Positions 2,119 through 62,626 of a stretch of DNA of 64,000 nt are shown here, one piece after another. The stretch is from assembly GCF_026571515.1 (NCBI RefSeq), contig NW_026864013.1, forward strand, positions 1-64,000. Direction: 5' to 3'. The position numbers were made by a program, and so were the translations under genes. Below the pieces are notes generated by a model, which had not been told where the DNA came from, searched no databases, and saw nothing but the letters and a program-made list of their open reading frames with translations. Numbering within the stretch: the stretch's first letter is position 1; each line of letters opens with the position of its first letter. Origin of the DNA: Ruditapes philippinarum. Taxonomy: Eukaryota.

Positions 2119-5064
2119 AAATAAAACTTAACTCTTTACATTCCGTATCTTGTGTTTCTATCATCATATAAGAAGCACGATTTATGCAGCAACAATATAT
2201 TATCATTATCTACTTACTGTTTAAACGAGACTAATATGTAAGTCTTGTGGGTAAATAACAATTTCCTGATGAAATCTGGTAAAAAGACGGTCTTTAGGTT
2301 TTATGGTTTTAAGGCAAAAAATTTCCGTGCAAGTATAACTTAAAATAATAACGTATGAATGCGGTTTTGGAAGGTTTTTTTTTGTTTTACTTTGATATTA
2401 TCAGATTATAGCTAAAACTATCTTTTAATGGTCTCAATTTTCGCAGTTCGGATACTGAGCTAGATATGTAGAAATAGGTAGTCAGATAACCATAATTTTT
2501 TAAACTATCTTCTGGCGGAATGTCCTGCTAGCTTGCGCTTTCAGATGAGCATTCAAGCAGAGCAAGAATCCTACAGTTCATTACTGAATGTCCCGCTATA
2601 TTGCTCTTCCTGTGTGATTTCAGTGCAATCCAGCAACACATTGATTTGACACTTTATTTGTACTGTCAGCTGAGCAATTCTGCAGTACATTAGTTTAAAA
2701 CTGTATTTCGGAAAGCTATATTGCTCTGCCACCTCAACAGCTCATTATCAAACAGAAGGTTGATTTTGCATTCTTTTTTCCGGAATGCCCTTCTACATTG
2801 TCCTAAAAGCTGAGCATTTTAGAGAGAAAATATTTGCGAATGCTCCGCTTGTTTTTCTCCACCAGCTAAGCATTTTAGCAACGCATTGATTTACAAGATA
2901 TCCTAATTCCCTCTTGGTTGCTCTGTCAGAAAAAAAAAATTTCAACGGATAACTAATTTTTCACTATATTTTGTAATGACCTCCTCGTTTCACTCTGCCA
3001 GATAAACATTTTATTTCCTTTTATTTAAATTTTGATCTAAGTCAGTGTTAACTTCTTATGTAATATAACAATCTTATCATAGGTTTTATACAGTATACTT
3101 GTATTTATTGCTTCTTCATAATTATACTTAGGTGTTGATCAATCAAATTATCTTTCCACTATGTACGTTTCTACGGTTTTATATTATTATTTTGGTTACT
3201 TTTAAGTGTAAAAAAGCTATATTTTAAGCTGGAAACATTAATGTTTGATCTTGAAAAAGATATGCTTCCAAAATGTTTGTATGAAAGAAATGTGGAAGTA
3301 AATTGTCTTAAAATGGAATTGTGGATGCACAAAATTATTGATAAACGAATAAGACCCTACTTAGAATGGCAGCATGTTATTGTGATCCGAAAGATTTTAT
3401 CTGTTTTCGTACAATATTCATGTGAGTAAAATAAAGACACATTCTATATTACAATACCCTTTTATTTTTAAGTCCAATTATTTAAGTCACTGGTAATGTG
3501 GCCGTTTGTATAAAAATGTGACGCTACAGATCGTTGTACTTGGGTCAAATAATAAACAATTTCAAAATGCCAAGTCATTAAATGTTACACCTTCTATACT
3601 ATTACTGTTTGCAAAATAATCATGCAAATCATTCAAATATTAAAAGAAAAGAAAGCAACGGGGATAGATTAGCAATAAAGTTATGTAAATAAGAGATTTC
3701 TCGCTAATTGCGACATATCGTTGCTTAGCAACATAATAACAACACAACGAGCGTGTCATACAATGCTAATCATTTGTATTTGAATCATTACCATGCTCAA
3801 TATCTTCAATCTGGACAAACCATTCATCATCTTTACTGGGTTTTTTTTTCAAAATATGTACTGACTGAAAAGCAGTTATTGCAGACAACGATCAGAAGGC
3901 ACAGGTGGGTTGGTGGGTTTTTGTATGCACTGGTCGTATAGGTTGAATCATCCAGCAGACAAATTGTTAAACATATACCCAATACAAAAAAAGAAACGAA
4001 CAATAGCATATTAGTCTACGTATTTTAACGTTTAATGTCTTTAGGACTATGAAACATAATAAATAAATAGTTAATTTCAAAATTCTACGTTTACTTTTTT
4101 ATTCTTTAGAACATAACAGTGCAGAAAATTGTAAAACAATTCAATAGGGCCGTATGATGAAAATAGAAACAAGTAGTTTGAAATATGTTTATGCACTAAA
4201 CTGTTATAACAGTGTACTAAAATCACTGATGATAAGACTGATTGCCTTGACTTACAAACGCTCGCACGCTTCGCAACAAATATCTATTGCGCTTTTTTGA
4301 CACCTCAGGCGTAATAACACATGTACGGACACCTGAATTAAACTGGAATCCTGGTGACTTCGATACTTGAATCAACTGTTTCTCTCTTCCGGGTGTTATT
4401 CTGGCCATCGCCGCATCCAGTGTACCTGACTGGAACCGAATTGTACCTCACTGGAACCGAATGCTTGAATTTTCTACCAAAAGAAAACGATAAATATCCG
4501 TAATGACACTTGTTACAAACTTATTTCTTAAAATGCCTCTATACATCAACAATATTAAATATTATTTTATGTACATTTAGAAATATTTTAGTCAAAAGAA
4601 AGGAACAACTTGGACAGCTTCGTAAATATGGTCACGTGACTGAATTTCACATACTGTTACTGTCAGTTTGTAAAATTATAAAAAATTAAGACCATCCTAA
4701 CCTAAAAATTTAATTTAATTATAAAAAGAATGATATAGATTTTATCTAATGTTGAAATCTTATACTAGATTTGGCTTAAATATACTCTTTAAGGACGATC
4801 ACCCTGAATACGTTCTAATAATACGGTATGGACATTTTTGACTTCATGTTATTATAAAAATGTAAGTAAAGTAAATTAGAGTTACTGGTAAGCGATTTAT
4901 AGAATTAATAAATTCTTACACTGTCATGTATAAGATATAAGCAACTCCGACTTTAAAGTTAGGTACTATTACGAACCGTTTGACCATTATATCATTGTAA
5001 ATGGTTTGCTTTAAAAATACCAGTGTCTCGACAAGGCAGGAATCTAATTAACTTGATTCTGGAA

Positions 5065-6021
5065 TAATAATATCTGTCATATGTTGCGGTTCGGACCGGA
5101 ATATCCGTCCCGAGGGGACCCGCCCATTGGGCGGTAACGAGGCTTGCCGAGTTACCGCCCATGGGCGGGTTCCCGAGGGACGGATATTCCGATCCGAACC
5201 GCAAACATATGTTAGATATTTTTTCTTGCATATTCTGCCATATTATTTCATATCTAAAATGGTTTACCTCAATATGATATATGTTCATGGAAATTAAAGT
5301 CATTTCATCCCTAACTATTTCCTTAAAATAGCGTATGAACTTACAACTTTAATAACAACGGCGAAATGACGTCATCCTAAGCACATATTTCCCTTCTAAA
5401 ACGACGTCATTTACCGCGGTTCATTCATAAAGTGCGCTAAAATGACGTTGTTGTTTGGCACGCGACTCATCTGGCACCCCCCATGCCAGATGAAATTTCC
5501 GGCATGGGTAAAACTCACGGAAACACCAGTCTGCTATGCAAGAATGTCTATTCTTGCATAGCAGATTGGCGTTTCCGTGAGTTTTACCCATACCGGAAAT
5601 TTCATCTGTGCCAGATGAGTCGCGTGCCAAACAACAACGTCATTTTAGCGCGCTTTATGAATGAACCGCGTTAAAATGACGTCGTTTTAGAAGGAAAATA
5701 TGTGCTAAGGATGACGTCATTTCGCCGTTGTTATTTAAGTTGTAAGTTCATACGCTATTGTAAGAAAATAGTTATGGATGAAATGACTTTAAATTCCATG
5801 AACATATATCATATTGAGGTAAATTATTTCAAATATGAAATAATATGGCAGAATATGCAAGAAAAAATATCTGACATATGTTTTCGGTTCGGATCGGAAT
5901 ATCCGTCCCTCGGGAACCCGCCCATGGGCGGTAACTCGGCAAGCCTTGTTACCGCCCAATGGGCGGGTCCCCTCGGGACGGATATTCCGGTCCGAACCGC
6001 AACATATGACAGATATTATTA
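5065..6021. mobile_element. Head-to-head dimer of a ~480-bp non-autonomous hairpin element (Crypton-like?) forming a ~957-bp palindrome
   Basis: 5065-~5554 is the reverse complement of ~5559-6021, with axis AAGAAT-gtct-ATTCTT. Each unit ends in a ~150-bp hairpin with loop CTCGGCAAGCCT. Same family as 31556-32663. Confidence 0.8.
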
Positions 6022-6280
6022 GTCTAACATCGACAGCACAGCGTCAGGTCGGCTTGTCCCATTCCAATCTGGACCTATCGTTTGACCTTCTTCATTCAGG
6101 AAGTTCAGTTGTTGTGGGATGTCATCCAGTCTGGATTTTACACAGGGTTTTAAAGTATAATGGGCCCATCTGGCGTGAACAAAAGCGGCAGACTGACGTT
6201 CTGACTGAAGGGACAAACTTTTCTTCAGTACCACGTGTGGCAACACTACGCCGTATACCCTCATTACCTATGAAATAACA

Positions 6281-7239
6281 AAAAGGTAAGGTTAGACTCT
6301 TTGCAGATGACACTGTTGTCTACCTAACCATCAGATCTAAACAAGATGCCCAAACCCTCCAAAATGACCTTCATGCTTTAGACAAATGGGGAAAAAACTG
6401 GTCCATGGAGTTCAACCTTGACAAATGTGAAGTTCTCAGGATAACAAGAAAAGGAAACCCTGTAATATTTCCTTATACCCTCCATTACATCCAACTAAAC
6501 TCAACTCAAGAAGCGAAATACTTAGGAGTCACTATTAGTCAAGACCTTTCATGGACCAAACATATAAACAACATCACATCTAAAGCAAATAACTCCCTCA
6601 GATTCAGTAGAAGAAATGTTAAAACATCAAATAAAAAGATAAAAGAAACTGCATATAAGACCTATGTTAGACCCCAGGTTGAATATTGCGCCATAGTTTG
6701 GCATCCTTGGCAGAAATTCTTAATTTATAAGATAGAGCAAATACAAAGATCAGCTGCTAGATACATTTTTTATAATTACGACTATACAAGTAGTGTCTCA
6801 AAAATGATTAATGATTGGCAAAACCTTGAGCAGCGTCGAAACACCAGTGTTGTAACCTACTTGTATAAAATCCCAAACAACATTGTTTTTGTTGACCACC
6901 AACACCTTTCTCAAACAAGAAATCTGAAGTACCTGATACCATACTCGAGGACACAATATCATCAAAATTCTTTCTTTCCTAGGAACAAACGTCTTTGGAA
7001 TAGCCTTACCCTAACCGTTCAGTCTAGCCCCAGTTTAAACATCTTTACTGAGAGGCTTGACCCATTCTATAAATTCTAAACTGCACACTATGTCTTTTAA
7101 ATTAATAATCTTGTAGAACGTTTATTTCTTTAACTTTTTAATTTGCATATAAATAATTTCTTTTACTTATAGTTCCCTGACAACGCGCCTGCTAGTCATA
7201 ATCAAAATTGATTGTTAATCAGTATAATGTAGATGTAGA
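6281..7239 (+). mobile_element. 5'-truncated non-LTR retrotransposon (CR1/L2-like), 3' end of RT ORF
   Basis: Reads [28 protein letters not shown], continuing into ORF 6405-7079 (KYLGVTIS.DLSW, YKTYVRPQVEY, SFFPR..RLWNSL). The 3' UTR ends in a (GTAGAT)n tail. Confidence 0.9.
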
Positions 7240-17799: not shown

Positions 17800-20503
17800 C
17801 AGGGCTGGGAATCAAAACTGCGTCGTATCCTACAAAATGTAAACAAACGCCGCCATCTTGGAACGAAAAAGGTATGTTTTTGTTTATAACTCTTTTTGTT
17901 GGAAATGACTGAAAACCAAATATATGTATTAACACGCTCCACTATTTTCCGCTTCGTCCGGTATATGATGTTTGTACAATTATTTTGTATAACAAAAATT
18001 ATAGCGAACTTGCAACTCGAAGCGGAGCAGAATTTTTATGAAGTTTTGTGTATACGACGCAGTTCATATTGCTTTATCTATCGTTTTTTCCTTCAAATCA
18101 ATTATTTACTCATTTCAGAATTCACCATAAACTTCAAAATATAATTTTGCATCATGTACTAAGATTTTATTAAAAAGAAATGTTTATTTTCCAAGAAAAC
18201 AATAATTTATACGAAATGATACGACGCAGTTGAAAATAAAATATGATACGACGCAGTTGTATTTTCATTGCAGGCTGCATATTAGTTCAAGTATGCTAGT
18301 AAAGTCCAACAACATTTCTTGTTTGCAAATTTTTGATCATTATGAATGCGCACAAGTGACCTATATAACTTAAGTCGAGAGCAGAAGTCACTCATTGGTA
18401 CCACTAAAATGGAAAATTCTATTAAGGCCTCATTTTTTCGGTCGCATTTTTAGCACCTGTCATAAGCATCTACAAATTCCGAAAAATGTTTATCAAATAC
18501 ATTGAAACCCGTGATCGCACACCCATATTGCAACGTACGTGTTTAAGTGCTGCCTTAGCATGCCTATAAACTTGTTCCCATGAGTTCGAAACTAATGGGG
18601 GGGGGGGGTTACATTTTTCATATGCGCAAATTAGATGGCTTCCTTTGTATAATTTACAACAATTTGCGACAAGTCCGATATTACTTATAATGTCTTTTAC
18701 ACGCCGATTTTATTGAATTAATTTTCTTAATAATCAGTGAGAAAAGATGAGCTTTATTATTAGAAACTTAAATCGGTATTTGAAATAAAGTATTATTCCT
18801 CTTTTAATACATGATCAGGAAAAATGGTCATTTATTCTGAACAATATTTTTTTTTAAATTATATGATAAATGGTTAAGCTACGATATATTTTTGCAAGTA
18901 CTGCATAAGTTTCGTTCAATCATTTTTATGTTCAGCGCCGTGGAACTTTACCGCTGATTTTGTCGTATTGCATTTCTTAATCGACGATGAGAACAGGTTT
19001 ACGGAATGTATTTTCTGGATTCGCACCATAGTGTCATTAATAAACTTTAAATTTTCAAATTCGGGTCACAAAAGATAAAACAAAAAACTATTTTGTAAAG
19101 TAGGTGTCCGTTTTGCAAAGGTATTTTACGCTTTGCACCGATAAATTTGATACAGATATATGCACGACATGATGTTTCAATAGTATATTGAAGATGTTTT
19201 ACTATATTAGATTAAAGCCAGGATGAGAAAACTTAGGTCAGATTATCGCATTGAATTTTCCACAGACTAAAGAGAAGGCATCTTAACATATCTTTATACT
19301 AAAGTGTGATTTTTATTTGATAATGAATTGACTGACACATAAAACATTTTTTTTCTTCAGAAAATGTCTTCAAAGAGGATTACCCCCTGTTTACATTGAA
19401 AAATAATTATATGCTATTCAAGCCACTGACATATCCTTTTTTAAACGAAATATCAAAGTAAAAAGTAATCTTAAACAGTAGGGAAATATTTTATTTTAAC
19501 AAAAATTTAAATGTTATTCACTTTATAATTAATTTAAATACTTGTAATCTTCAAACTTCATGCCAGAGGTTTATTAAAAAACTGCTTACTTGTACGGCTG
19601 ACATTTAAGACGATGGTTAACAAATTTGTGGGAAAAAATCAGAGAGGTGTGTCCGACTTAACTGCTGTGAATTTGAAAACCACTAGGGACTTCTGATTCT
19701 TTCGTAAGCTAATGGTTCTCTGCAGGTGTAACATTTTGCCTGAAATAATGCACAAAGGCGCACCTGAGGTCCTTAACCCTAGTAAAACTAAAGTGTAGAG
19801 TGAAAGTTTGAAATAAAACCACAAAAAGCAGTCATCGCATAGAACATGCAGACCCACAGTTTACTAAGAGCGTAGCTAGCCAAAATGAATTTTGTGATTC
19901 AAGTTCATAGACTTCTATATTTTTGCCAACAAAAAATACGGATAAAAGTGAACATATAGGAAAATATAAGAAATTATTTCAGATATTATATGAGAAATTA
20001 AGTAACATGTTCATGTTTAACTGAAAAGTAGCTTCTGCAATCTAAATTGGACATGACACAATGCTTTCTAAAAGAACATTGCTATAAACTGCGAATGATC
20101 TTAGATTTTTTATCTAGCACAAGTGATTATCCGGTGAAATAGACATATATAGCCAAAATTATCCATGTTGAAAAGAATACCAAAACTACAACTGCGTCGT
20201 ATCATATTTTATTTTCAACTGCGTCGTATCATTTCGTACATATTATTATTTCTCGGAAAATAAATATTTCTTTTTAATGAAATTTTAGTACATGATGCAA
20301 AATTATATTTTGAAGTTTATGGTAAACTCTAAAAATTAGTATATAATTGATTTGATGGAAAAACGATGGATAAAGCAATATGAACTGCGTCGTATCCACA
20401 AAATTTCATAACAATTCTAGCCCGCTTCGAGTTGCAAGTTCGCTATAACTTTTGTTTTACAAAATAATTGTGAAAACAACATATACCGAACGAAGCGGAA
20501 AAT
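17800..20503. mobile_element. Long-TIR non-autonomous DNA transposon; right TIR cut by the IS3EU insertion
   Basis: ~17944-18262 is the inverted copy of ~20190-20503, with repeated AACTGCGTCGTATC motif. The left end starts CAGGGCTGGGAAT. Confidence 0.7.
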
Positions 20504-23500: not shown

Positions 23501-24965
23501 TAAAATTACAATAAATCATTAACAATATAATCAAAATAATAATCAAAAAATAATATAATCTATAATTAATAATTATGAATGCCAACACGAAACCCAATTG
23601 CATGTTCATTGTAAGTCATTGTAAAAATGTTCCACAATCATCTGTAAAAATTCAAGGTACGTTTAATGGCTATCAAAAACTTTCCGTTATTCGGCGACAA
23701 CACTCGAACAAGTTTCTCGGTTTTAATGAGGCCCTTTAGTAAAAAGTTTTGGCATATCTTTATGTCTTCTTGATCAACACGATGATCACAGTTATGCCCA
23801 CCATAGATTCCAGGTACAAAATACATTCCGTAAAGTATTTCAATATTCTTTTGGATTTCGCTTGTCATGTAGAGTTCTGCTTGGATCAAGTCCATAATAA
23901 GACATTCCATATGTACACGATTTGTTATGTCGAAACTTTGAAATCAATAAGATACTTGAAAAATGATATCCGCCAGTGCAACCTTGTTTACGAAGTAATC
24001 CTTGCCAGGATTCTAAACGCTGATTTGCTACACTCTTTCCATGCATAAAACTGTTCAACCTTGCTACTCGTTATGTGCCGTTAAAGCTGGAATATGGGTT
24101 GAAGCAATGCTAGCGTTGAATTATTTTCAATTCATATGCGTATTATGACGCTATCACTGCCGGCGAGTTGTCGCTATTTGATCATATGATGGGTGGAATG
24201 TACAGATCGCTCCGAGGATGCACAATCAACATGGCTTTAACTTGTCGTTACAATTTACATGCCACACAAAGTTAATCAGTTCTAGCCCTTCTGAGAATGA
24301 CAGCTAAATCTTTTATTACAACACTTGTTAGTGGTGTAAAAACAAACAGCCAAAGTCCAAACCTCCACGCTAATTTAGAGTCCATTTTAATAATCAGGAA
24401 AAGGGATAAAGAAGATTCTGCAATAGAAAAAATAATCAAATTATTTTAATAAACATAAGAAAATCAACAGTTTTTAATTATTATAAAACTGTTAGTTACA
24501 CATTTTTAAATACTTTTTCAAATATGATAATTTGGGTTACAGACAACAGATATATCAGTTTTAAAGCTTGTGTCCCTCATCGAAGATTTTTTTGTTAGCC
24601 AGGTTCGGCACTGGCTAAAATAGCTACTTACGGAGTCAATTTGTCCCAGCTTGTTGAAGATAGCTTGGTCGACCTTTGTCTCCTATTGAAATTGGTTGTT
24701 TTTACCTGGTCCTTATATATAAGATATAATCACCTAATCTTTTAACGTTCTAGCTATATCTCTGCAATTCTTTGAATAAAAAAATAGAAAAATAAAGAAA
24801 TATATCAAAAAGTTTATCTCACATCTTCTTATCTATATTGCAGTTAATATGGCGTTTTCATGCCTATACGGAACATCTAAGTTCTAAGGGCTAAGACCTA
24901 AGGTTCTAAGATCTAACATCTAAGTTCTAACTTCTAACTCAAAACGGCCTCAATGGGCTTCCGTA
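20519..24965. mobile_element. IS3EU-type DNA transposon (defective composite), 6-bp TSD CCATTG
   Basis: TIRs TACGGAAGCCCATTGAGGCC...GGCCTCAATGGGCTTCCGTA, flanked by CCATTG at 20513-18 and 24966-71. Subterminal 7/14-bp TTAGAAC arrays. Transposase remnants KLKPYGFCIQGAIDGYSR..LEV..SNN.P (+, 21470-21600) and GKSVANQRLESW..LRKQ (-, 23985-24045). Confidence 0.85.
22262..22446. repeat. 14-bp tandem array (AAGTTCTAATGTCT)n
   Basis: ~13 units; reverse-complement relative of the IS3EU subterminal arrays, so probably the right subterminal region of the first element copy. Confidence 0.8.
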
Positions 24966-24971
24966 CCATTG

Positions 24972-25500
24972 AGGCCGTTTTGAGATAGAAGTTAGAAGTT
25001 AGATCTTAGATCTTAGATCTTAGAACATAGATCTTAGAACTTAGGTCTTAGCTCTTAGAACTTAGAGGTTCCATATTGGCGGGAACACGCCATATTTACT
25101 GCAAGATAGACAAGAAGATGTAAGTGAGATAAGCTTTTTATTACATGTATATTTCTTTAATTTTATTTTTTAATTTAAAGAATTGCAGAGATATAACTTA
25201 AAAGATTAAGTGATTATATATTATAAATAAGAACCCGGTAAAAAGCAACCAATTTCAATGAGAGGCAAAGGTCGACAAAGCTATCTTCAACAGGCTGGTA
25301 CAAACTCCATAAGTGGATATTTTAGCCAGTTCTAGCTATTTTAGCCGAACCTGGCTACCAAAAATCTACGATGAGGGCACAAGCGATGAACCTGTTGCCT
25401 ATATTTTTGTAATTATCAATTATCAGCTTTAAAACAGTATTTAAAATTGTGTATCTGTTAGTTTTATGATAATTAAAAAATGTCGGTTGTCTAATGTGTA
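24972..25500 (+). mobile_element. Older IS3EU left-end copy (its first 15 bp lie at 20504-20518), 3'-truncated
   Basis: TACGGAAGC-CCATTG at 20504 resumes after the TSD as AGGCCGTTTTGAG..TTAGAAC arrays; homologous to 20519-21000. Confidence 0.8.
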
Positions 25501-26448
25501 TTAAAATGTGCTTTTCCGGAGCTAAACACATTCTCACAGTTGTTCGTTTTTTGGTAACAGTGCTTGCACATCGTCTCAATTTGTGTCATGAACGTTATCC
25601 ACTTCTGTTATTTATTACAAACCTGATCAATTTTACTAGCTTAATGTGATCTTTCCATATAATGATAAAACAAGGGACATGAAAACGGTATGCTCTATTG
25701 TCTTGATGAATTTAGTTTAATCTTTTATTTGTTATCATTGTACGATTCATTATATCAATACATAAAATTTATACATATACATTGCACATAGCCATTCTAA
25801 AATATAATTGTAAGAAACTACTTAGCGTTATTGAAGAACTTTTATAACATTTCCACACAAACTCCTTTAAATAAAAGTAAGACATTCCTTGTTAATCTGT
25901 TAATCCTGCAGCCGCTTTATTACATTACAAGGTTGAATGATATTAGTTGTTGCACTTGGGTAAAAAATGAGTGAAAATCAAATCATTTGTTCCTCTATTT
26001 GGTCACAGATGTTATCAATACAAGTATTATTTTACACAGTATTTTAGGAATAAGATTACTATAATTCTGTGTTTTCTGGCAGACGTTCAGCTTTTAAATG
26101 TTTTCGTGGTTAAATACAATATGTTATCTTTTTGGCGTCAATGAAACATGGTAGTTATCAATGCTTGTACAAGTTTTATGATAAAAACTTATAATTGCAA
26201 TTTTCATGGAAAATTATTTGTAAAACCAAAAACAAAACTCAGTAAATACATAAATAACTTTAACATGATTTTGTGCTGTTATTCAATGTGAAGAGATGAG
26301 TCAGTGGTCGTTCAGCCAGTTACAGTGTCGATTAAGTCTTACCGATAATTTCCTCTCTATTAATAAGTTGTTTGTAGCGTAAACTTCATTAATAATATAT
26401 TATTTAAAGCAGAGTGTAATTACAATAATTCATATCCCATATTTGCAG

Positions 26449-30487: not shown

Positions 30488-31652
30488 ATGGATAGCAACA
30501 AAGGAGGTAAGTGGATTTAAATAAAATTCGATGTACTAAAATGCTTACCTTTCAGTGTGCTTGATTATATTATTCTTTCTTTATCTCGCTTTACTGTGTT
30601 TTGTTAGCACTGCCTTTAAATGTGTCCATTTCACAGGCTAATGAATTAAATTGTTTGGTTTTGGTCTTCCCATACAATTATATAATACACTAGTTAAGCA
30701 AGCAAGATAAAATATTTGACTTATTTAAAACATTTAACTTATTATTATTTCAGGTACTTTGCTTCAGAGACGAAGGAAATATGTCAAGATAAGTAAAGAG
30801 GAGACGTTGCTTATCTTAAGAGCGTATGTGAACCATCCCAAGAGCTGGCAAGAAATCATGGAGGAAGTAAAAGAAAATCTTGATATTTTTCTTCCTAGCG
30901 CCAGGGAAGTTTATACTACGGGGAGCCTTAGACAGCTGAGAGACCGGATGTCCGTAAAACTCAGCTCGTTGATCAAGAAAAGGCCAGAGGACATTAAAGA
31001 CGCGGATGTTAATTATGTACGTTGCTTCTGTAACCATGCTAACTTGAACCTTTGCTTTGAATGGTTGACTTATAAATTACTGTATATTAGCTAATTGGCA
31101 GCCAGCCATTCTCAAATTATTTTTATTTGTTTTCGAAGCGAATTTCTGATTAATATAGAAAGGTGTTAAGTATGCTAGGCCAGGCCAAAACCCAAGGTGG
31201 TATACGTCTTAAGCGAACAACAAAGTGCAAGACATGTTTTTGTTTAATACTTTCAAACGTAGGTAAAAATTTGCGCTATCAACAGACTGATGTTTTGCGT
31301 AGTTAATATGTTGAACATGTTGACTATTTTTCAAATGCATTTTTTTTTTTTGGTTTTATTTCAGAAGTGCTGTAGAAGATATCAGAAGACAAAAAATGAG
31401 CGATGGCTCATTCCAGAACCTGAACCAGCACAAGCATCCGAATCATTGGATCAAGAGGAGCAGGTAGAAGAAGCTGAACCAGCTCGGTCGCAACCAGATT
31501 TTAGGACAGTAATGGCTGCTGCTGTGTCGACTGACGCCAGTGATGGGGAGCAGCATTTCTTGCATATCAGACAGGATTTTCTTGCATATCAGACAGGATT
31601 ATCTACCGTTTACACCGGTGCTAGAAAACTCTGTCTTACACCCCCCATGTAA
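30488..31652 (+). CDS. Small Myb/SANT-like domain protein (possibly a transposon accessory gene), C-terminus replaced by an inserted element
   Basis: In-phase exons 30488-30506, 30754-31016, 31365-31652. Encodes ISKEETLLILRAYVNHPKSWQEI...SLRQLRDRM (Myb/SANT-like spacing) and an acidic tail; the last ~30 codons lie inside the hairpin element. Confidence 0.5.
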
Positions 31653-32663
31653 GACAAGTCGCGTGCTTTAAATGACGTCATTGCCGCGCGCCTTTTATGA
31701 ATGAATTGCGTTCTTAGGATGACGTCATTTTACCGTTATGAATGAAGTTGTAAGTTCATACGCTACTATAAGAAAAAAGTGCGTAATGAGAATATCAGTT
31801 TTCGTAATTTCTGTTCTGAAAATAATTGATATGTAATATGCAAGAAAAAGAATCAAACACCGGCTGTCGGTACAGACGGGAATATCTAGCTCTCGGGTAA
31901 CTGTTTAGCGGAAACTCGGCAGAGCCTCGTTACCGCCGTAAACAGTTACCCTCGAGCTAGATATTCCGGTCTGTACCGGCAGCCAGTGTAAGATTCTTAT
32001 AATCTACCGTTTACACCGGTCCTAGAAAACCCCATCTTACACCCCCATGTAAGACAAGTCGCGTGCTTTTTAAAAATGACGTCATTGCTGCGCGCCTTTT
32101 ATGAATGAATTGAATTGCGTTGTTAGGATGACGTCACTTAACCGTTATGAATGAAGTTGTACGTTCATACGCTACTATAAGAAAAAAGTGCGTAATGAGA
32201 ATATAGGTTTTCGTAATTTCTGTTCTGAAAATAATTGATATGCAAGAAAAAGAATCAAACACTGGCTGTCGGTACAGACGGGAATTATAAGAATCTTACA
32301 CCGGCTGCCGGTACAGACCGGAATATCTAGCTCGAGGGTAACTGTTTACGGCGGTAACGAGGCTCTGCCGAGTTTCCGCTAAACAGTTACCCGAGAGCTA
32401 GATATTCCCGTCTGTACCAACAACTGGTGTTTGATTCTTTTTCTTGCATATTACATATCAATTATTTTCGGAACAGAAATTATGAAAATTGATATTCTCA
32501 TTACGCACTTTTTTCTTATAGTAGCGTATGAACATACAAATTCATTCATAACGGAAAAATGACGTCATCCTAAGAACGCGATTCATTCATAAAAGGCGCG
32601 CGTCAATGACGTCATTTAAAGCACGCGACTTGTCTTACATGGGGGGTTTAAGACAGAGTTTTC
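31556..32663. mobile_element. Cluster of three hairpin-element units (+, partial +, -), same family as 5065-6021
   Basis: Units 31556-32001 (+), 32002-32285 (+, truncated) and 32286-32663 (-). Shared TTCTTGCATA/TATGCAAGAA ends, AAGTTGTAAGTTCATACGCTA core and terminal hairpin. Confidence 0.85.
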
Positions 32664-33171: not shown

Positions 33172-33390
33172 AAACCAACATAGTGCGTTTGCGACCAGCA
33201 TTGATCCAGACCAGCCTGCACATCCGTGCTGTCTGATCAGGATCCATAATTTTAGCTATTAGTTTCTCTACTTGCCATAGGGTTTGTAAGCGAACAGCAT
33301 GGATCCTGATCAGACTGCGCGGATGCGCATGCTGGTCTGGATCCATGTTGGTCACAAACGCACTATGTTGGTTTTGTCATGACGCGGCTC
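33172..33390. mobile_element. Sola-like MITE copy
   Basis: Palindromic; ends GCGGCTC followed by AAAT; left tip missing. Confidence 0.8.
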
Positions 33391-33563
33391 AAATGAAAGC
33401 TGAAATCGGTTGATTTGGTAGAACATATTTTAGCCCTAACCATCATAGATTCAAGTAAATATATGTTCAAGGTTACCTGGTTTTATTTTATATTGGTAAC
33501 AAAAGCCAGTCACTACATTTACTTGCTATCAAATGGTTAGAAGAGGCGAAGTAAAGTTGATAG

Positions 33564-34394
33564 AACTAGAAATGTGTCCATAGGACACTGATGCCCCCAC
33601 ACGCCACTGTTCTGTCAATCTTATGACTCTAGGTCAAATATTTTTTGGACTACATGTGCCACAAGTTGAAAACTAAAAATCAACAAAGGGCCATAATTCT
33701 GTTAAATTTGGTCGCAGCAAAAAATCCTTCCTTTACTACGATCTACACATTAAGGTTGTTAATCCCTGGAAGTTTAGGCAAAATCTGCCATCCGGTTTAA
33801 GAGGAGTTGCATTCACAAAATTTCTACATAGTATATAGTGAAAAAATCAACAAAGGGCCATAATTCTGTAAAATTTGGCCGCAGCGAAAATTCCTTCCTT
33901 TACTGCCATCTACACCTTAAGGTTGTTCATCCCTGTAAGTTTAGGCAAAATCTGCCATCCGGTTTAAGAGGAGTTGCGTTCACAAAATTTCTACATAGTA
34001 TAGTGAAAAAATCAACAAAGGGCCATAATTCTGTTAAATTTGGTCCCAGCAAAAATTCCTTCCTTTACTACCATCTACACATTAAGGTTGTTCATCCCTG
34101 GAAGTTTAAGCAAAATCTGTCATCCGGTTTAAGAGGAGTTGCGTTCACAAAATTTCTACATAGTATATAGTGAAAAAATCAACAAAGGGCCATAATTCTG
34201 TAAAATTTGGTCGCAGCGAAAATTCCTTCCTTTACTACCATCTACACATTAAGGTTGTTCATCCCTGTAAGTTTAAGCAAAATCTGCCATCCGGTTTAAG
34301 AGGAGTTGCGTTCACAAGATTTCGGGATGTACGGACGGACTGACGGACGGACAAGTGCAACGCTATATGCTCCCACATTGTGGGGGCATAAAAA
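33564..34394 (-). mobile_element. HINE-type element with ~4 x ~166-bp units
   Basis: AAATCAACAAAGGGCCATAATTCTG recurs near 33677, 33844, 34008 and 34176; (CGGA)n; terminal ATGCTCCCACATTGTGGGGGCATAAAAA; GTGTCC-ATA-GGACAC hairpin at the other end. Confidence 0.85.
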
Positions 34395-35229
34395 CGTCAC
34401 AAGGTTTGGTAAAAGTTAACTAAGAATACTGATGAAAACGATGGATGTGGTTTGCTTTGACAAAATGAAAATAGGGACTTGGGATAAGTTAACGTACAAT
34501 GTATGAAAATCTACTCGAATTAACATTAATCTAAAGAGCCAAAATATCATTTCCGTGGATAATATAGGTGCTATGGGAAACGCCAAAATATTAATTCAGA
34601 TGTAAGGACAAACTTTGTAGGATTCATAAATGTTTGAGTCCAGGTTTTACGAAAATTTTAATGCATTAATTTTTTGGTCATATCTTGTAGTTAGCCAATC
34701 TTACCGACTTTCCTGGTTAACTAACTGGCAAATATCAATTTTTCAGCAACTGAATCATCATTTGAATGAATAGACTCTAGTAAAAAAAAAATTTCAGATA
34801 TATATACAAAGGTATAATAATATGGAGGGCGCACATACATGTACATTACATGAATTAACTTACATGTCTTAAAAGAAACCAACAATAACTTAGTCTAATG
34901 GATGTACAGACAACAAAACAACACAATTTATATAACAATATTTTCATTTACAAGTTACATCATAGAAAAATTAAATAATTTTTTTATTAGCAAACTCCAA
35001 CAGATGTTTATAACTGAATTAGTTCTTGTAAAATAAAGTTCTTTCGTTTTAGTAGAAATTTTATCCCTGTGCAAAATCTTTATGACGGAAAACTTTACTT
35101 CAAATCTGAATGCGCTGTGCATTGAATAGTTTCCAATGGGTAATGCAATAAATGTAGATCTCAGTTTCATATTCATGTTATAAAAAAACACACACAAAAA
35201 AATCCTTCTTCAATCTATTACAGTATAAT

Positions 35230-38200
35230 TTATTTAGTAGAGACCCTAGTTTTCTTATTCCAACTGAAATTTGCTCCGTAAGATTTGTGTTTAAATGTTG
35301 TCTTCTGAGGTTTGTCTACATAACACTCCAAACCTGAAAACATAAAAAACAAATGACATTTTAACAACAAAACAAATGAGCCACGTCACGACAAAACCAA
35401 CATAGTGCGTTTGCGACCAGCATGGATCCAGACCAGCCAGCGCATCCGCGCAGACTGATCAGGATCCATGCTGTTCGCTATCAGTTTCTCTACTTGTGAT
35501 AGAGTTGGTAAGCGAACAGCATGGATCCTGATCAGACTGCGCTGATGCGCTGGCTGGTCTGGATCCATGCTGGTCACAAACGCACTATGTTGGTTTTATC
35601 GTGATGCGGCTCAAATATGAGGCTAATATATATATACACTGTAAACAAATAGATACACAGTAAATTCTGCTTATAACGATATAGCCGAATTTATATTGTT
35701 ATATCCATATCATTATATCCAAGAGGCAACCAATTTGAAAACAAGAGCCGGGACCAATGCGCAGACAGCTTCATTATAAGCAGTACATCGCTATTAGTGA
35801 TGTCTTTTAAGGTAGAACACCACTAATGGGGACTATAAGGAACTGTAAAATTGACAACATAGGACAGTTACATGTCTTCAAGGTCACCTGTATTCAAAAT
35901 TTACTGTGTGGTTTACGAGTTACGGACATTTTTTCTGAACTAAAGCTTTGCAATTAGAAGGGCTTTTTCAGAAATGAGGAAACTCTTAAATTATCTATAA
36001 TAAATTATCATCATTATGAAAAATGTTTTCCTATTGCTCATTGTTAAGAAACACATTATGACATTCAGGTAACAAATTAAACAAGCAGAATGATTGCTTC
36101 TAAATGAAATGTTTTAATATGTATAACAAGAGCTGTCGGTAGGACAGCAACGCTCGACTATTCTTAGTGCTTGATAGTAAAAAAAATGCTTGATACAGTT
36201 ACCTCCTCCTGTTTACAGGTTGGGGTCATGATGGTGAACAAGTGTGCAAAGTTTCAAAGCCATATGTCAATGGACTTTGAAAATATTTGAACTATTACAA
36301 AAACTTTAACGTAAATTCTAAGTCGAAAAAGGGGCATAATTCTGTCAAAATGCTTGATAGAGTTACCTCCTCCTGTCTACAGGTTGGGGTCATGATGGTG
36401 AACAAGTGTGCAAAGTTTCAAAGCCATATGTCAATGGACTTTGAAAATATTTGAACTATTACAAAAACTTTAACGTAAATTCTAAGTCGAAAAAGGGGCA
36501 TAATTCTGTCAAAATGCTTGATAGAGTTACCTCCTCCTGTCTACAGGTTGGGGTCATGATGGTGAACAAGTGTGCAAAGTTTCAAAGCCATATGTCAATG
36601 GACTTTGAAAATATTTGAACTATTACAAAAACTTTAACGTAAATTCTAAGTCGAAAAAGGGGCTTTATTCTGTCAAAATGCTTGATAGAGTTACCTCCTC
36701 CTGTCTACAGGTTGGGGTCATGATGGTGAACAAGTGTGCAAAGTTTCAAAGCCATATGTCAATGGACTTTGAAAATATTTGAACTATTACAAAAACTTTA
36801 ACGTAAATTCTAAGTCGAAAAAGGGGCATAATTCTGTCAAAATGCTTGATAGAGTTACCTCCTCCTGTCTACAGGTTGGGGTCATGATGATGAACAAGTG
36901 TGCAAAGTTTCAAAGCCATATGTCAATGGACTTTGAAAATATTTGAACTATTACAAAAACTTTAACATAAGTGGTTACGCCGACGCCGACGCTCGGGTGA
37001 CTGCAATAGCTCTACTTATTCTTATCGAATAGTCGAGCTAAAAATGTAACCCTACCCCACCCAATTTAAACAATTATTTGACCATTTCCTTATGTAAAAA
37101 ACCTTATTTAAAATAGCCCTAAAATTTCCACAATGAGGGGCTGTTTTCAAAGTTTGCCTAAATTTTCTTAAATGTATACTGGTTGGTCTTGCAAAGTATA
37201 AAATACTTTTACAGTATAGTTTTTATTTTATTAAACTTTGAAAATATCTGGTATCATATTTTCTATCAAATTTGGCATTATTTAGCAAATAAATACCTAC
37301 AATAATTATATAATTAAAATGAAACATTTTTTTCTTCCATTAGGGATCTGAAAGATTCATAAAAAATGTTTAAAAGAAAAAAAAGAAAGAAAAAAAAGTT
37401 GCCCCTTCTCGGGTTTGAACCCACGCCCCTCAGTTTCAATATTACACTTGACAGTGATTCTAGCCTATTTGGGTACTCTTCAATGTGGAGTGCATTAGAG
37501 GTGTACTACCTTAAGTTGAGTTTACTTATTTGTAAAATTACGTATCTAATATTAGCAAACAGTCATCTATAGTTAATAAGTTGTTCTAATGTAATCACAG
37601 AATATAAGCAAGTAACAAGTAAGAGAGCAATAGCTTTGATTACATAGAACTTATTGACCATCAAGAAAACTTACCCTTATAGTATGAAAAATTCCCCCAA
37701 AAAAGAAAATCATCACTTTGATAAAAAATATTTTCATTTACCTTTTTGAAAAAGTTTTCCATTTTAATGATGACTAAGCAGCTTTGAGTAAATATTTCAT
37801 ATATCTATGATGATTTTAGTGAAATGGAAAAAGAACCACTGAAATGCACTTATGTCTTATGGATTATCTGCTTTTTCAAAATGGGTTTCTATATTGATAC
37901 TGAACAAGTATTACAAGTTGAATATCCTTGATGGTTCATGGGAATGGACCTCAATAAAAGTATTAACCAAGGAAAAGCTATTGTCATGACATTCTACATT
38001 TGTATCTTCAAAAAGTGGAGTATTATGTTTTACCTTAAGATGTCAAAGCAGGTAATTAAAGATTCTTACCATTTTTTTCACAAAATTCAACTGCAGCTTC
38101 ACTGCTTGCAAACTCCAAATGTACATTGGATAATGGATCACCCCTGCAAGATATATGGATATACAGACCTTTTATTAACATTCCATAATTTTCTGATGAA

Positions 38201-41200
38201 AATAACATCATTACATTATAAGATATAAGTATTTTAAGTATTCCATGCTTATCAAAAGTGTGATGATTTTCGGGGACATTTTTGTGGTTTTAATGTCACT
38301 GAAATTGTAAAACTCCTGTCAGCTTTCAAACTTTACTGACCAATTGAGGAGGGCCCAAGGTACCCCTTGATGCGTTATCTATCTCACAAGTCACCACAGT
38401 AGAACCACTGACTCTGTAAAATGTAGAAATACATTACTGCAACACTATGTTTTTACAGTAGATTACTATAAAGCTTTTAACAAAGTTATACATAAAATTA
38501 CCGAAAAGTTATTCTATTCTGCTCACAATCAAAAGTTCATAGTATGAAGTTAAAAAACTGCATTGCAACAACATATCATTCAGATGTTAAGGGTGAAAAA
38601 AGTCATGTATTGACCAGCAGTAAACAGTGTTCGAAATTAGCAGTAGTCCGATAGCCCCTGACTACTTAATTTCTCCTTGGGCCACCAACTTTTCACAATA
38701 ACAAGCCCGACCAGACTACTGTATTTTCAGAGGCAATATAAACAACTGTTTTGAACAAATGAATCGTGCAAGTGAAATGTCTTTTGGGCTAGTGAATATT
38801 CCAAACTGATAGTCCGACCAGCCTAGTTGATTCAAATCCTAATTTCTTACACTGAGTAAAGTCATGTATTGACCACTGGCCAGCATAAGTGTATAATTTT
38901 GACACACTTCAAACCAAATGCATTTCGTCGTTTAACAGACTGAGCAATCAAATTCATTATTACAGTCTAATGCACACCTTATAATTAAGACATACTGTAT
39001 GATTCCAGTTGTAGCATTAAAAAGTCAAATAACAACCTGATAATTCTCTGCTAAATATAGTTCTACATATTTCTGATAACTCTTTTTGTATAAGGATAAT
39101 AGAATAGAAGTAATTATCAATCTTTCTTGCATTATAGTTCAATAATACATTGGGGTACAGTTAATTCAAATGCTTTGTAATCAATCACTCTGTAAGTCAG
39201 TCAGGCCTACAAGTTTTCATGACTATATTATATCACTGCATAAGTGAACAGGAACCGTGAATACTTCTACAAAAAACCAATCAAATTAACATTTTTTTTC
39301 AAAGTATACCCTTTTTTTCCAGAATTTTTTTTTAACTTACGTAGATTGCCAGCCCATTAAAGGGTTTTCCCAGCGTTCTCTAGTATCATAGTCCATTCTC
39401 CATTTATTAAGACCAAAAGTTCCACTCTGCATAGCATTTCTTGCTGGCATGTAGATTCGTACCCTCCTTGTCTTGACATGCTCCTCTGGCATACCATTGA
39501 GCAGTGACATGTCTTCCTGTAATATATCAAAATGTTATTCATACCAAACTTTATTAAAAAAAAACTAACCAATTTAAGTGGTGATGAATCATTATAAACT
39601 ATTATGAAAATATTATTAAATAAATTGATGGTAGCCTGTCAGTGAACATTTATTTATAAAATCTGAATATAGTTCATTTAACTTTTTAGCTTACTACTTT
39701 TGTCTCTGTACACACAACTAGGCAGTAGCTGGAATTATTGAATACCCATTATCTCTTAATAGTTATACTTTTCTATTGCATTGGGTAATTAGAAAGTCAC
39801 TCACTTATGATGCAACTAAACTGGAAACCAACCAATCTTTATAACTATAAGAGTAAAGCACTTTTGACGGCCTACATGAGATTGGTCTCATGTCACAGTA
39901 TTAATCCAACTCATATTTAACTCTGCAGATTCTTTTGTTTTAATTTAAAACAAATGACAATTGTTGGAAGTTACAGCCTATACTAACTAAGTATGGTATT
40001 CATGTTTGGAAATTTCAAAATATCACACTACACTTACAACACTGGGGACAATAATTGTGTCACGCTCAGTGTGTTTTGGAGCAACTTCTCCCATAGCAGC
40101 AGATACGCTCTCAGCTCCTGTGACCTTTACACTACTGTCATCTGCCAGAGTTCTGAAATATAAAGCATTTATTAAAGATATATCTAAATTGCCTATATTT
40201 TTCACTTTAAACAACAAAGTTTCTGTCTAAAAAATTGAAATCATACGATTTGCCATGTAAAAGAAAAATACATGTAGTCTAAAAAAATTTTTGGTAACAA
40301 ATAAACCTATAAGTAATAACAGATAAGTGATCATTTTGCTTAGCCCACAGAAGCTCAAAAACAAGTTCAGATTAAAGAGCAAAATGTGCGTTCCCAAGTA
40401 TGTTCAAGGAAAATTATCAGAACAATAGTTTTAAACTATGAATTTGATTAGATGCAAACTTTACTGGTAGTCAGACTATTCTCTCCCTTACCAGTTCCTC
40501 CCTGGCGGTTCTCTCCCTATTTTGGGGGAGAACTGTCTGCATATTTGCAAATAAGCAGCCAGTTCCTCCCAGTTTTCATTTTTAACACATTATTATAATA
40601 TTTAAGTATTTAGATGTTAAATAAATGGGTAAGTTTATTATTAATTGATAAAGTTAGAATTTTTTACATACTTTTGTAAAATGAAGACAGGAGTTCAATG
40701 CACACACAATGAAGGTGTTGATAGGATTAAAATACCTGGAAAAGGTGTTTAATTTACAGGCACTTTTCAGCTGATCAACATAAAACATAATATAAAATAT
40801 AACTTAATATCAAACACATTCTTCATTTAGATTAAGAAAAAACTAAAATGATCTTATAAAAAAAATTGGGGGAGATTTTACTGTCTGCATATTTCAAATT
40901 TGGGAGAGAACCGTCAGGGGAGGAAATGGTTTGGGAGAGAATCGTCAGGGAGAGGAACTTGTAAGACAGAGAATAGTCTGTCATTCACTTTACTGAGGAT
41001 GATAAATCATGCACACGACTATACTGCTTGAACCAACTACCAACCCCACCCTCACCTGTTTTTATTGTATTTTTGGGACTTTTGAAAATGTCAATTTCTT
41101 GACCAACTTGTAGGCTCGTGCCTACATAGCCTAATAGTAGCTACGCCGATGGTTAGGGTTTTAGAACATGGATTTTGTTAATATACGTACCTGGTAAACA

Positions 41201-44200
41201 CATTTATGTGAATAGGAATATTAAAGCTTCGAATTTTCTTCATAAAAATGCTATATTTTGTATGAAATAAATGTGAAAAACACTTGCATACAAAAGAATT
41301 TTTTTTATGTAAGCATAATTTGTAATATCTGGACATTTCCCGTACAAAGTTCATCCCGGTATAAAGTACTTTGAGGCTGAGTGTAAATTAATTTAACTGT
41401 TAATTTAGCATAATATGTCTGACCATTTTACAGGTGGGGGGAAAATCCCGGGATCACCTATAGAAAAGCCGGGACCCGGGATCGCATTAAACATATAGTA
41501 ATCCCGGGAATTGACCACCTACTCTTGGTGTATTATTATTATTATCATCATTTGAATGTTTTTGTAGAGATTTCTGAATAAGTTTGATTTGTAGTAGTAA
41601 TAAAAAATCTTTAATAATAACGTATTTTTTAACGATTTCAAGATCGTATTAAAAAATATAGGGATCCCGGAAATTGACCAGTCTAAGAAGATATTTTTCA
41701 GATAAGCCGGGATCGTATTAAAACTTATAGGGATCCCGGAAATTGGCCAGTTCAAGAATATAGTTTTCAGAAAAGCCGGGATCGTATTAAAACATATAGG
41801 GATCCCAGGAATTGACCAGTTCAAGAATATAGTCTTTAATTCTTCCAATTAATTATAGGCATATATGTGATTTCCGCATTTTAAGTTTGTTAATAAATAG
41901 CTCTAAATATATTTATATCCTAAGTTAAATTAATTTAACATTCATTACAGACAATAAAAATAAAAACTTAACGTTTAATCGCCTTTCATTACGACAATAA
42001 TCAACACAAATATAGGTTATTAGTTTTCCCTCTATATCTAATACGATCCCGGATCCCAGGCGTCCCGGGATTTTCCCCCCACCCATTTTACATACGATTT
42101 ATACAGTGAGATACGCAACTGGTTATCTTTACTCGAAAAACTACTGATAAGAATAATAAGACCCGTGCAAACGTATGCCCTGTCTACAAAAAAGGTGATA
42201 CAAGTGATCCAGCAAACTATCGCCCAATTTCCCTTACATGCATCCTCTGTAAAACACTCGAACACATAGTTGCCTCTCAACTATCCTCTCACTTTACCAC
42301 CCACAACATACTCTTTGATCTTCAGCATGGATTCAGAGAAAGACGATCATGTGAGACACAACTCATTGACCTTACTGATTACCTTGTGAACAACCTTTCA
42401 AATGGCAAACAAACAGATCTATCTCATACTTCTTGACTTCTCCAAAGCTTTTGATAAAGTAAACCATCTTAAACTCTTAGATACCCTTCAAGAACATGGT
42501 GTTTGTCCTCAAATTCTAAACTGGATACAGTCCTTCCTTATTGGCCGTAGACAGACTGTAGTTGTGGATAGTGACTGCTCATCTGAAGTCCCAGTTACCT
42601 CTGGAGTGCCCTAAGGCTCTGTCCTAGGGCCGCTCTGTTTCCTTCTATATATCAACAAGTTACCATCTTCTGTCCTCAAATCCCAAGTCAGATTATTTGC
42701 AGACGACACTGCTGTATACCTAACCATCAATTCCTCCTCAGACCCCCCCAACTCTCCAACATGATCTAGACAATATGGTTCTGTGGGAGAAGCAGTGGGA
42801 CATGGAGTTTAACCCTTCAAAATGCCAAGTCATCCATATCACCAAAAATAAAACCATAATTAAACACAAATATAATTATGCTCCATGGCCAAGTCCTAGA
42901 GTCTGTTACAAATGCTAAATATCTCGGACTAGATCTATCTGCTGACCTTAAATTCAATACACATATATCTCGAATAACTTCCAATGCAAACAGATCCCTT
43001 GGCTTTATTAAAAGAAATGTCATTACTAAAAATGAGAAAGCAAAAGAACTAGCATACAAGTCCCTGGTCCGCCCACAGGTTGAATATGCCTCAACTATTT
43101 GGTTTCCTTACACTAAAACCAATATTGACAAAGTTGAGATGATCCAGAGATGTGCAATAAGATGGGTTAAAAGGGATTACTCCCCTCACTCTAGTGTCAC
43201 AGCCATGCAGGAAGAACTGGGCTGGCGATCCCTTGAACATCGCAGACTGGACTGTAGACTGATAATGTTTTATAAGATATACCATAACCTAGTTGCAATT
43301 AATCTCCCAACTTATGTTGAAACCCCACATAGATTAACCAGACATATGCATCCCTTATCCCTACGCCAAATACAGGTATCCTCCGACTACCATAACAGTG
43401 TAAGAAATTAGGATTTGAATCCACTAGGCTGGTCGGACTACCAGATTGGAATATTCACTAGCCCAAAAGACATTTCACTAGCATTATTCATTTGTTCAAA
43501 ACAGTTGTTTATATTGCCTCTGAAAATGCAGTAGCCTGGTCGGGCTTGTTACTGTGAAAAGTTGGTAGCCCGAGGAGAAATTTAGTAGTCTGGGACTATA
43601 GGACTACTGCTAATTTTGAACACTGCCATAAGTACTCTTTCTTCCCTCATAGCATTATACTATGGAATAAACTTCCTAGTAACATTGCCACCCTGCCCAA
43701 CCTGAGTCAGTTCAAACAGGCAGTGGTGGGTTTGCAGTACTAGTCTTACTCCCAGTATTTTTAAACTATTTTATCTCTTATCATCTTGTTTCACTATTAA
43801 CATTTTAACCATGACTAGAATACATTTTCAGTCTCACCTTCCAAGCATGTCAATGTTTGGACTTTTCTTTTTTAGCTTCTCTCTTCACCTTTTACTAACA
43901 ATCCGACGTGCACTAAATTCCTGCCTTTAACACTCGTAAGAGGGGTTGGCAGTATCCAGAGATAGATAGAATAGCCTGTCGTCTGCTAGTTGTGAAAGTG
44001 TTTAAGGGTGTATTGTCTGTGCCAAAGAAATTATGACTGGGTGGGGTACTTTTATATCTCGGTTCGCCCTTGGGATTTTGCTTGCAAGTTCATTAAAAAC
44101 ATGGGTTATAATAAAATTTTAGCACCTTCGAATAATTGGAATATAATATAGCTACCACACTAGAAAAATAAATGTCAAATTAACCAACCTGAATAATTGT

Positions 44201-51936: not shown

Positions 51937-52594
51937 ACTATTAAATTAGATAATGTAAAAACAATATTCTAACAACTACAAATGGATCCTGATTCCTGTG
52001 CCAAATTATCTCAAACTTCCAAACATAATTATATTATAAAACATCAACAATAACAACAATCAGAGTATCAGTTATTGTCTAATAATGGTGGAGACAATAT
52101 ACTTAGGCCAAGGAGCATTTGTGTGTAATAATAATACGTATTAAAATGTGCAATTAATGACATGGTTTAGTGCAAATGGAGAATTATATCCATATACAAT
52201 GAATTTAGTGAAGTTTAGGCTCTTCTATTAAGCTTCACAGACATGGTTTACATTGTACAACAACTTTGTTCATCCAAAAAGATTGCTTGATTTTTGCTAT
52301 CATTGGCTATAACTTTGTTATGTATGAATGGTTGTCTTCATACTTGAACGCAACAATCGTTTGGACACGACCTTCAACTAGACCAAATTGATTATGACCT
52401 TAGCTCATCGGTGACCTTGACCTTGAAGGTCAAATAAATGAATATTGCTTGATTTTTGCTACAATTGGCTATAATTTAGTTATTTTTTGAATAGATTGTC
52501 GTCATACTTAAACACAACTACCACAAGGACAATGTCTTAAATTTGACCTTGATCTTTAAATGACCTTGAACATGAAGTTATTGTTATTTTTCAG

Positions 52595-62414: not shown

Positions 62415-62575
62415 AGTCTGATCAGGATCCATTCTGTTCGCTATCAGTTTCTCTACTTGTAATAGAGTTGGTAAGCGAACAGCATGGATCCTGATCAGAC
62501 TGCGCGGATGCGCAGGCTGGTCTGGATCCATGCTGGTCGCAAACACACTATGTTGGTTTTGTCGTGACACGGCTC
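62415..62575. mobile_element. Sola-like MITE, partial copy just downstream of the C3orf38-like stop codon
   Basis: Same family as 35378-35612; ends CGGCTC followed by AAAT. Confidence 0.8.
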
Positions 62576-62626
62576 AAATTAATTAAACTACGATAAATAC
62601 AATATGTACATTGTACATTATCCGAC

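Follow-up and report, generated by a model that had tools for sequence, protein, structure and literature searches.

The question raised by this locus is what kind of element ends in a hairpin of about 150 bp that is kept as a fold while its stem sequence changes. The window (the whole stretch of 64,000 nucleotides that was analyzed) is contig C12500 of a 1.41-Gb genome and has a GC content of ∼33%. A first-pass annotation had picked out two hairpins that differ in stem sequence yet pair; both do pair, and all four pairs of stem segments that it quoted lie where it placed them. The hairpin at 5866-6017 is the 3′ end of a gene-less element of ∼480 bp (family A), and the one at 31848-31998 closes a gene-less relative of ∼423 bp (family B), the two families being 67% alike over 300 bp. 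Family A is a small, very abundant jumping element without a gene, and the hairpin is one of its ends. A rough estimate from read depth suggests ∼400 family A-like copies in the genome. The ∼150-bp terminal hairpin is real but caps one end of the monomer only; the window looks palindromic because two family A copies lie head to head, 6 bp apart. The second hairpin site is a nest of three family B copies (Table 1).

Table 1. Positions of the family A and family B features in the window.
Feature	Position	Strand	Remarks
Right copy of family A (non-autonomous), 471 bp	5551-6021	+	From 5′ end through hairpin
Left copy of family A, 480 bp	5065-5544	-	Head to head with right copy
6-bp host spacer between the two A 5′ ends	5545-5550	.	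Inferred overlap region, one target site
Target boxes flanking the A pair	5061-5063 and 6023-6025		
5′ terminal 10 bp, right A copy	5551-5560	+	Complementary to subterminal repeat
Subterminal inverted copy of A 5′ end	5854-5863	+	Directly 5′ of hairpin
Family A 3′ hairpin	5866-6017	+	Stem ∼65 bp
Two TC/TC mismatch blocks, family A (GA/GA on other strand)	5909-5975	+	CTCG words at 5909, 5935, 5945 and 5972; 5909 faces 5972; 5935 faces 5945, which is CTTG in the window copy
Predicted boxes of the folded junction	5860-5862 and 5870-5872 (one arm); 6011-6013 and 6023-6025 (other arm)		By eye
3′ hairpin, left family A copy	5069-5222	-	
Family B element, 423 bp	31579-32001	+	Without TSD, inserted 22 bp inside another B copy
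Family B 3′ hairpin	31848-31998	+	CTCG at 31892, 31915, 31926 and 31951
Outer family B copy	31557-32285	+	31557-31578 plus 32002-32285; interrupted twice
Third family B copy, 5′-truncated	32286-32663	-	Opposite-strand insertion in outer copy's hairpin

The window also holds other repeats. An abundant palindromic family of ∼220 bp, with a hairpin that lacks CTCG blocks, is present at 8-172, 33172-33400, 35377-35622 and 62357-62585, and also in many other loci of this study. Tandem arrays of 164-167-bp units lie at 33675-34473, 36183-36974 and 52514-54092. Long inverted-repeat pairs, possibly other transposons, were seen at 17944-18265 with 20183-20503, at 24443-25507, and at 38625-38854 with 43396-43625. 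To the right of the A dimer, at ∼6300-7000, is what we take, by eye, to be a decayed non-LTR reverse-transcriptase-like stretch.

Folded as DNA, positions 5866-6017 gave −71 kcal/mol (z −16.0) and positions 31843-31995 gave −58.8 kcal/mol (z −14.2), and in each case none of 200 shuffles was as good. Exact matches to the loop pattern CGAGGC-N2-3-GCCGAG number 2691 genome-wide, versus 4 to a reversed control. TC/TC mismatches number two per hairpin, the second sitting inside what had first been read as the loop. The distance between the two blocks is 14-23 nt in some families but 50-70 nt in others. On the other strand each block is CGAG facing CGAG, usually twice per hairpin. In NMR structures, CGAG opposite CGAG adopts sheared G.A pairs (PMC10085684), so the two strands of the hairpin would fold differently.

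For comparison across families, 28 hairpin representatives, related by descent, were chosen by eye and partly by their apical motif; the arms of 27 were aligned (L176 was dropped because it gave no match to its pattern). Tandem mismatches in these 27 were TC/TC in 42 of 61 cases and TC/TT (CpG-decayed) in a further 8, or 50/61, a figure to be read with the partly circular choice of motifs and the shared descent of the families. In 15 representatives the two blocks are 14-23 nt apart; of their 525 stem cells 490 pair, against a mean of 200 and a maximum of 235 in shuffles, and mean stem identity is 34%. This bears out the compensatory turnover claimed in the first-pass annotation. A motif identity of 94% was rejected as evidence because both motifs had been required. 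Circularity is less of a concern in a search by the loop alone, which recovered five kinds of family; the second block was seen by eye in each.

The annotation had also held the loop and mismatch to be conserved. This is borne out between families; inside family A or family B, the motifs show no clear advantage over the stems in conservation. Differences were found at 6 of 400 non-CpG motif cells versus 133 of 5000 stem cells in family A, and at 7 of 344 versus 120 of 4429 in family B; the copies are too young for this comparison to have power. No truly flipped hairpin was present among 50 A and 43 B hits, and the single GA hit, an apparent flipped B hairpin, was rejected as the nested B copy of the window. 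Hairpins in L099, L105, L107, L240 and L280 have a mismatch block corrected to perfect pairing, in either direction, or an inverted apex. These are signs of template switching from arm to arm, and quasi-palindrome correction is a known process. Because single copies carry an erased or inverted block, the arms exchange information without selection. Stem covariation by itself is weak evidence, since correction between arms can produce paired changes (L099, L105/L107); the informative point is that the mismatches survive correction that could yield the paired stem changes.

Both ends were read for seven families (A, B, C, D2, YR-1, YR-2 and YR-3). All seven start with TT, have their first 10-20 bases inversely repeated just before the hairpin, and finish in TA or AT immediately beyond the hairpin. 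In head-to-tail copies these ends are joined exactly, and tandems with such exact junctions occur in both A and B (L018, L026, L030, L037, L048 and L051). Because the 5′ end is inversely repeated before the hairpin, a circular or tandem junction would fold to a site like that of a tyrosine recombinase (YR). In this predicted layout, read by eye from the printed ends, the junction would lengthen the hairpin and place two three-base boxes on either side of a spacer of 7 nt in one arm and 9 nt in the other, and the predicted crossover would fall one base before the outer box. Elsewhere (L096, L102, L105, L218, L312 and L322), different hairpin families are stacked end to end or mutually inserted at their ends, in the manner of cassette arrays.

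The target was read at 58 A and B sites, some of which repeat a single target by nesting. Its pattern is R-(G/A/T)-A-N7 to the left of the insertion point and N-T-(C/A)-T to the right (in summary form, R-G-A-N7 and N-T-C-T), a quasi-palindrome with an 8-bp spacer. R was present at −10 in 52 sites, A at −8 in 41, T at +2 in 55 and T at +4 in 47; position +1 was T in 14/58. In four runs, hundreds of reads and contigs have loose ends that give AGA at −10 to −8, the same upstream box. Identity between the target spacer and the element's own end was 157/406, versus 153 when shuffled. In all copies listed, the element's spacer stays on the 3′ side and no flank is carried over. Eleven insertions with a paralogous empty site showed a gap of 0, with neither duplication nor loss; runs of negative gaps in this comparison come from how the sequences were sliced and were disregarded. 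Ordinary TIRs and TSDs are absent, with two 5-bp coincidences among 65 elements. A 40-bp “TSD” in L020 was rejected because gap-0 matches are found there too, as a tandem repeat would give. Note that the absence of an empty-allele joint among 15 of the ∼400 joints listed for L010 reads carries no weight as evidence.

Given the symmetry of the target, the opposite strand would have a second cut point at a distance of 6 bp, so head-to-head pairs are predicted to lie 6 bp apart. Gaps at the first 50 of 65 head-to-head sites (control, 12) were 6 bp in 17, 7 bp in 7, and spread over 17 other lengths in the remaining 26. Excluding the window, the 6-bp gap occurs at 16 of 49 listed sites (P ∼2e-11 under a flat null). 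All three of the 6-bp loci inspected are family A ends; two other loci inspected are unrelated sequence. The model has no explanation for the second peak at 7 bp or for an 11-bp gap (L026).

The first-pass annotation suggested a Crypton link and called for long copies with the same ends and a YR/DUF3504 gene. PF12012 (DUF3504) has at least 149 matches in this genome, 150 of ∼395 candidates having been scored in this as in each YR search. Multi-copy YR-gene elements, of 2.2 kb (L093-L100) and ∼4 kb (L105-L107, L155) where both ends were read, end in hairpins of the same design: loop, mismatch blocks and layout of the ends all agree. The loop of YR-1 is that of family B; hairpins D1-D3 were found both on short elements and at the ends of YR genes, D1 and D2 having the loop of A and D3 that of B. 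The catalytic residues R-K-H-R-H-Y are present in all four aligned full-length hairpin-linked YRs. Because sister hairpins end YR elements with intact catalytic residues, the Crypton link holds by way of these sister families. No YR copy with exact A or B ends was found among 67 plus 40 YR loci, so the enzyme that mobilizes A and B is one we infer. BLAST of A and B against the YR loci returned only separate degraded copies nearby, and a parent search by subterminal repeat and loop pattern (one base off) only A/B variants and one nested insertion. A YR-bearing hairpin in L318 has the base and loop closest, by eye, to family B and is a lead for the mobilizing clade.

In the 1.5 kb downstream, a hairpin of TC polarity is present at 19 of the 67 unique YR loci and one of opposite polarity at 3; 8 have a mirror-polarity hairpin upstream, 12 another hairpin, and 28 none by scan. 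The background of 10 hairpins in 149 kb gives ∼3 expected for 67 loci. Hairpins were also present at 17 of 40 further YR loci, many of which are copies of few families, and at 10 of the 27 metagenome YR loci (80 in all) that have at least 1 kb downstream. In L101/L102 and L108/L110 the hairpin is upstream of the YR gene in mirror polarity: the end is of the same kind, but the gene points the other way with respect to it. Divergence of the YR goes along with divergence of the hairpin (Mantel rho 0.57, p 0.001) across 9 representatives, two of which are one family split by a frameshift. Named YR homologues are from molluscs, cnidarians and one metagenome bin, and a PDB sequence search with the YR returned QRICH1 only. 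The modeled YR (pLDDT 86.5) matches Cre with Z 18.9 (rmsd 3.3 over 284) and the integron integrase 2A3V with Z 13.3 (rmsd 4.2 over 255); as modeled, the protein would fold like Cre and not specially like IntI. In the model of the YR at L096:1448-2872 (minus strand), residues 11-54 form a confident small beta-rich N-terminal domain outside the range of the fold match.

Families A and B share their build with the DUF3504 YR (CryptonA-type) transposons of this genome. What the analysis shows is their ends, hairpin layout, target pattern and lack of a TSD, together with a YR in sister families. With moderate confidence, we consider such an enzyme their likely mover, and predict that it exchanges one folded strand of a circular copy with a double-stranded target, by analogy with integron integrase acting on attC. 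The 3′ end of the element would be joined to its 5′ end in a circle or tandem junction. One strand, probably the CGAG strand, would fold, and pairing of the 5′ end with the subterminal repeat would create two binding boxes around the asymmetric 7/9-nt spacer. The YR would exchange the folded strand only, after 5′-AA, at either of two cut points that lie 6 bp from each other in the quasi-palindromic target; replication would resolve the junction, and the CGAG blocks would mark the strand.

The staggered palindromic target points to a YR. Classical YRs follow a spacer-homology rule, and coupling sequences are known from Tn916; a one-sided exchange with neither homology nor coupling sequence, at a site formed only by folding, points to the integron route. 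In that route a single-stranded attC meets a duplex partner, cleavage is within AAC and replication resolves the product, as described in PMC5027507. The folded strand as substrate, already proposed in the first-pass annotation, is supported by independent footprints (split site, 7/9 spacer, no spacer homology and 6-bp stagger), of which it is still an interpretation. Points against this route are the Cre-like fold, blocks that are not extrahelical bases, the lack of a YR with A or B ends, and the 28 of 67 YR loci without a hairpin. At little better than even confidence, we extend the proposal to animal CryptonA as self-mobile integron-like cassettes, in which a eukaryotic YR would read a folded single strand chosen by sheared G.A blocks and would insert by one strand exchange and replication at degenerate palindromic targets genome-wide.

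The same YR elements might instead move as a double-stranded circle recombined by two strand exchanges that tolerate mismatched spacers, as in the published, Tn916-like model of Crypton movement, which we judge possible though rather unlikely here. The CTCG words would then be direct-repeat binding sites in duplex DNA, with template switching keeping the stems palindromic. A circle model for Crypton movement is cited in PMC3212892, and the Cre-like fold and the symmetric target with its 6-bp stagger suit it; the visible correction between arms does too, but such correction would erase the mismatches, which persist. Against this route stand a duplex-junction spacer of 9 bp versus 8 in the targets, an element spacer that stayed on the 3′ side without carried-over flank in every listed copy, and a subterminal inverted repeat, kept in every family with ends read, that would have no role.

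A role for the hairpin in replication, as a nick site, origin or terminator for single-strand or rolling-circle copies, with integration at a site that has no need of the long hairpin, is improbable. A long stem with spaced blocks far from the crossover would fit such a signal, but flip/flop hairpins are absent and no Rep gene was seen in the 2.2-kb sister elements, where the YR frame fills most of the length. The exact-junction head-to-tail tandems of A and B would fit as well; they would, however, arise just as well when an element inserts into its own junction, and stacks of mixed families are present (L096, L105). Very improbable is a Helentron/DINE-1-type rolling-circle element moved by Rep/helicase with the YR genes as passengers: the 5′ TT, asymmetric inverted repeat, 3′ stem-loop, lack of TSD and tandems match HINE/DINE-1 as described in PMC4067079, but T^T is possible at most in 14/58 sites, stems measure 50-90 bp instead of 5-10 bp, the target has a 6-bp stagger and is quasi-palindromic, and YR and hairpin diverge together. 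A DDE MITE was rejected for want of a TIR at both ends or a fixed TSD. Neither outcome that the first-pass annotation had named as refuting its interpretation was observed, no DDE partner having been seen. ATon, which has TIRs and an AT target (PMC3422177), was set aside.

The reading we prefer, transfer of one folded strand by a CryptonA-type YR, concerns a real feature. The elements are of this type and have structured ends that are now defined; since a target consensus and intact enzymes are also available, the proposed integron-like mechanism can be tested with oligonucleotides. Crypton movement has so far been proposed by analogy only, and animal Crypton ends have been reported as featureless. 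In the literature searched, neither folded Crypton ends nor an integron-like route is described; Repbase, Dfam, subscription journals and bioRxiv supplements were outside its scope and may describe the hairpins. The part of PMC5027507 (2016) that deals with YRs taking single-stranded sites names only IntI and XerC/D. If the proposal is true, it would add a third and eukaryotic case, which would be notable. It would also provide a tool for recombination without homology, and many hairpin repeats that are now unclassified could be annotated by rule.

The loop of these hairpins may be shared with Eulor5/6. Eulor5/6 have been classed as non-autonomous Crypton by similarity of termini (PMC5753468). 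The DUF3504 YR with catalytic residues that marks CryptonA is present in the sister families of the same end design, A and B being gene-less. Animal CryptonA and their derivatives (PMC3212892) and the fungal Glomhopper CryptonA (PMC13465315) likewise have, as described there, a DUF3504 YR as the sole gene seen and no ordinary TIR or TSD. Sizes are also alike, with parents of ∼2 kb and derivatives of ∼0.5 kb here and there (CryptonA-1_OL, 2073 bp, and its derivative 1N1_OL, 554 bp, in PMC3212892). The 4-6-bp terminal direct repeats of CryptonF and CryptonS were not found, identity between left flank and 3′ end reflecting composition only; animal CryptonA is also reported without them in PMC3212892. 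In the CryptonA papers terminal repeats are absent or unresolved, and the word “hairpin” occurs 0 times in the main text of PMC3212892 or PMC13465315, whereas for the elements here the ends are defined, the inverted repeat is asymmetric, the 3′ hairpin is structured and the target has a consensus.

Helentron, HINE and DINE-1 elements, as described in PMC4067079, resemble them in a subterminal inverted repeat, a 3′ stem-loop and an unmodified target. The long structured hairpin (a stem about ten times the length described there), a target that is not T^T, and the YR in sister families set the present elements apart. The likeness to integron attC/IntI (PMC5027507) lies in a site split on integration and rebuilt by folding, an asymmetric two-box spacer (here by eye and predicted), crossover after 5′-AA on one strand (here predicted), low stem conservation and stacking in arrays. 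The first-pass analogy to the extrahelical bases of attC is loose: instead of two or three such bases beside the inner box, the marks kept here are symmetric 2×2 mismatches farther out, tens of bases from the crossover, which would form tandem sheared G.A blocks on the other strand. The modeled match is to a common YR fold in which Cre scores above 2A3V. Unlike integron cassettes, the elements described here carry or borrow their own YR and use degenerate sites genome-wide, not attI.
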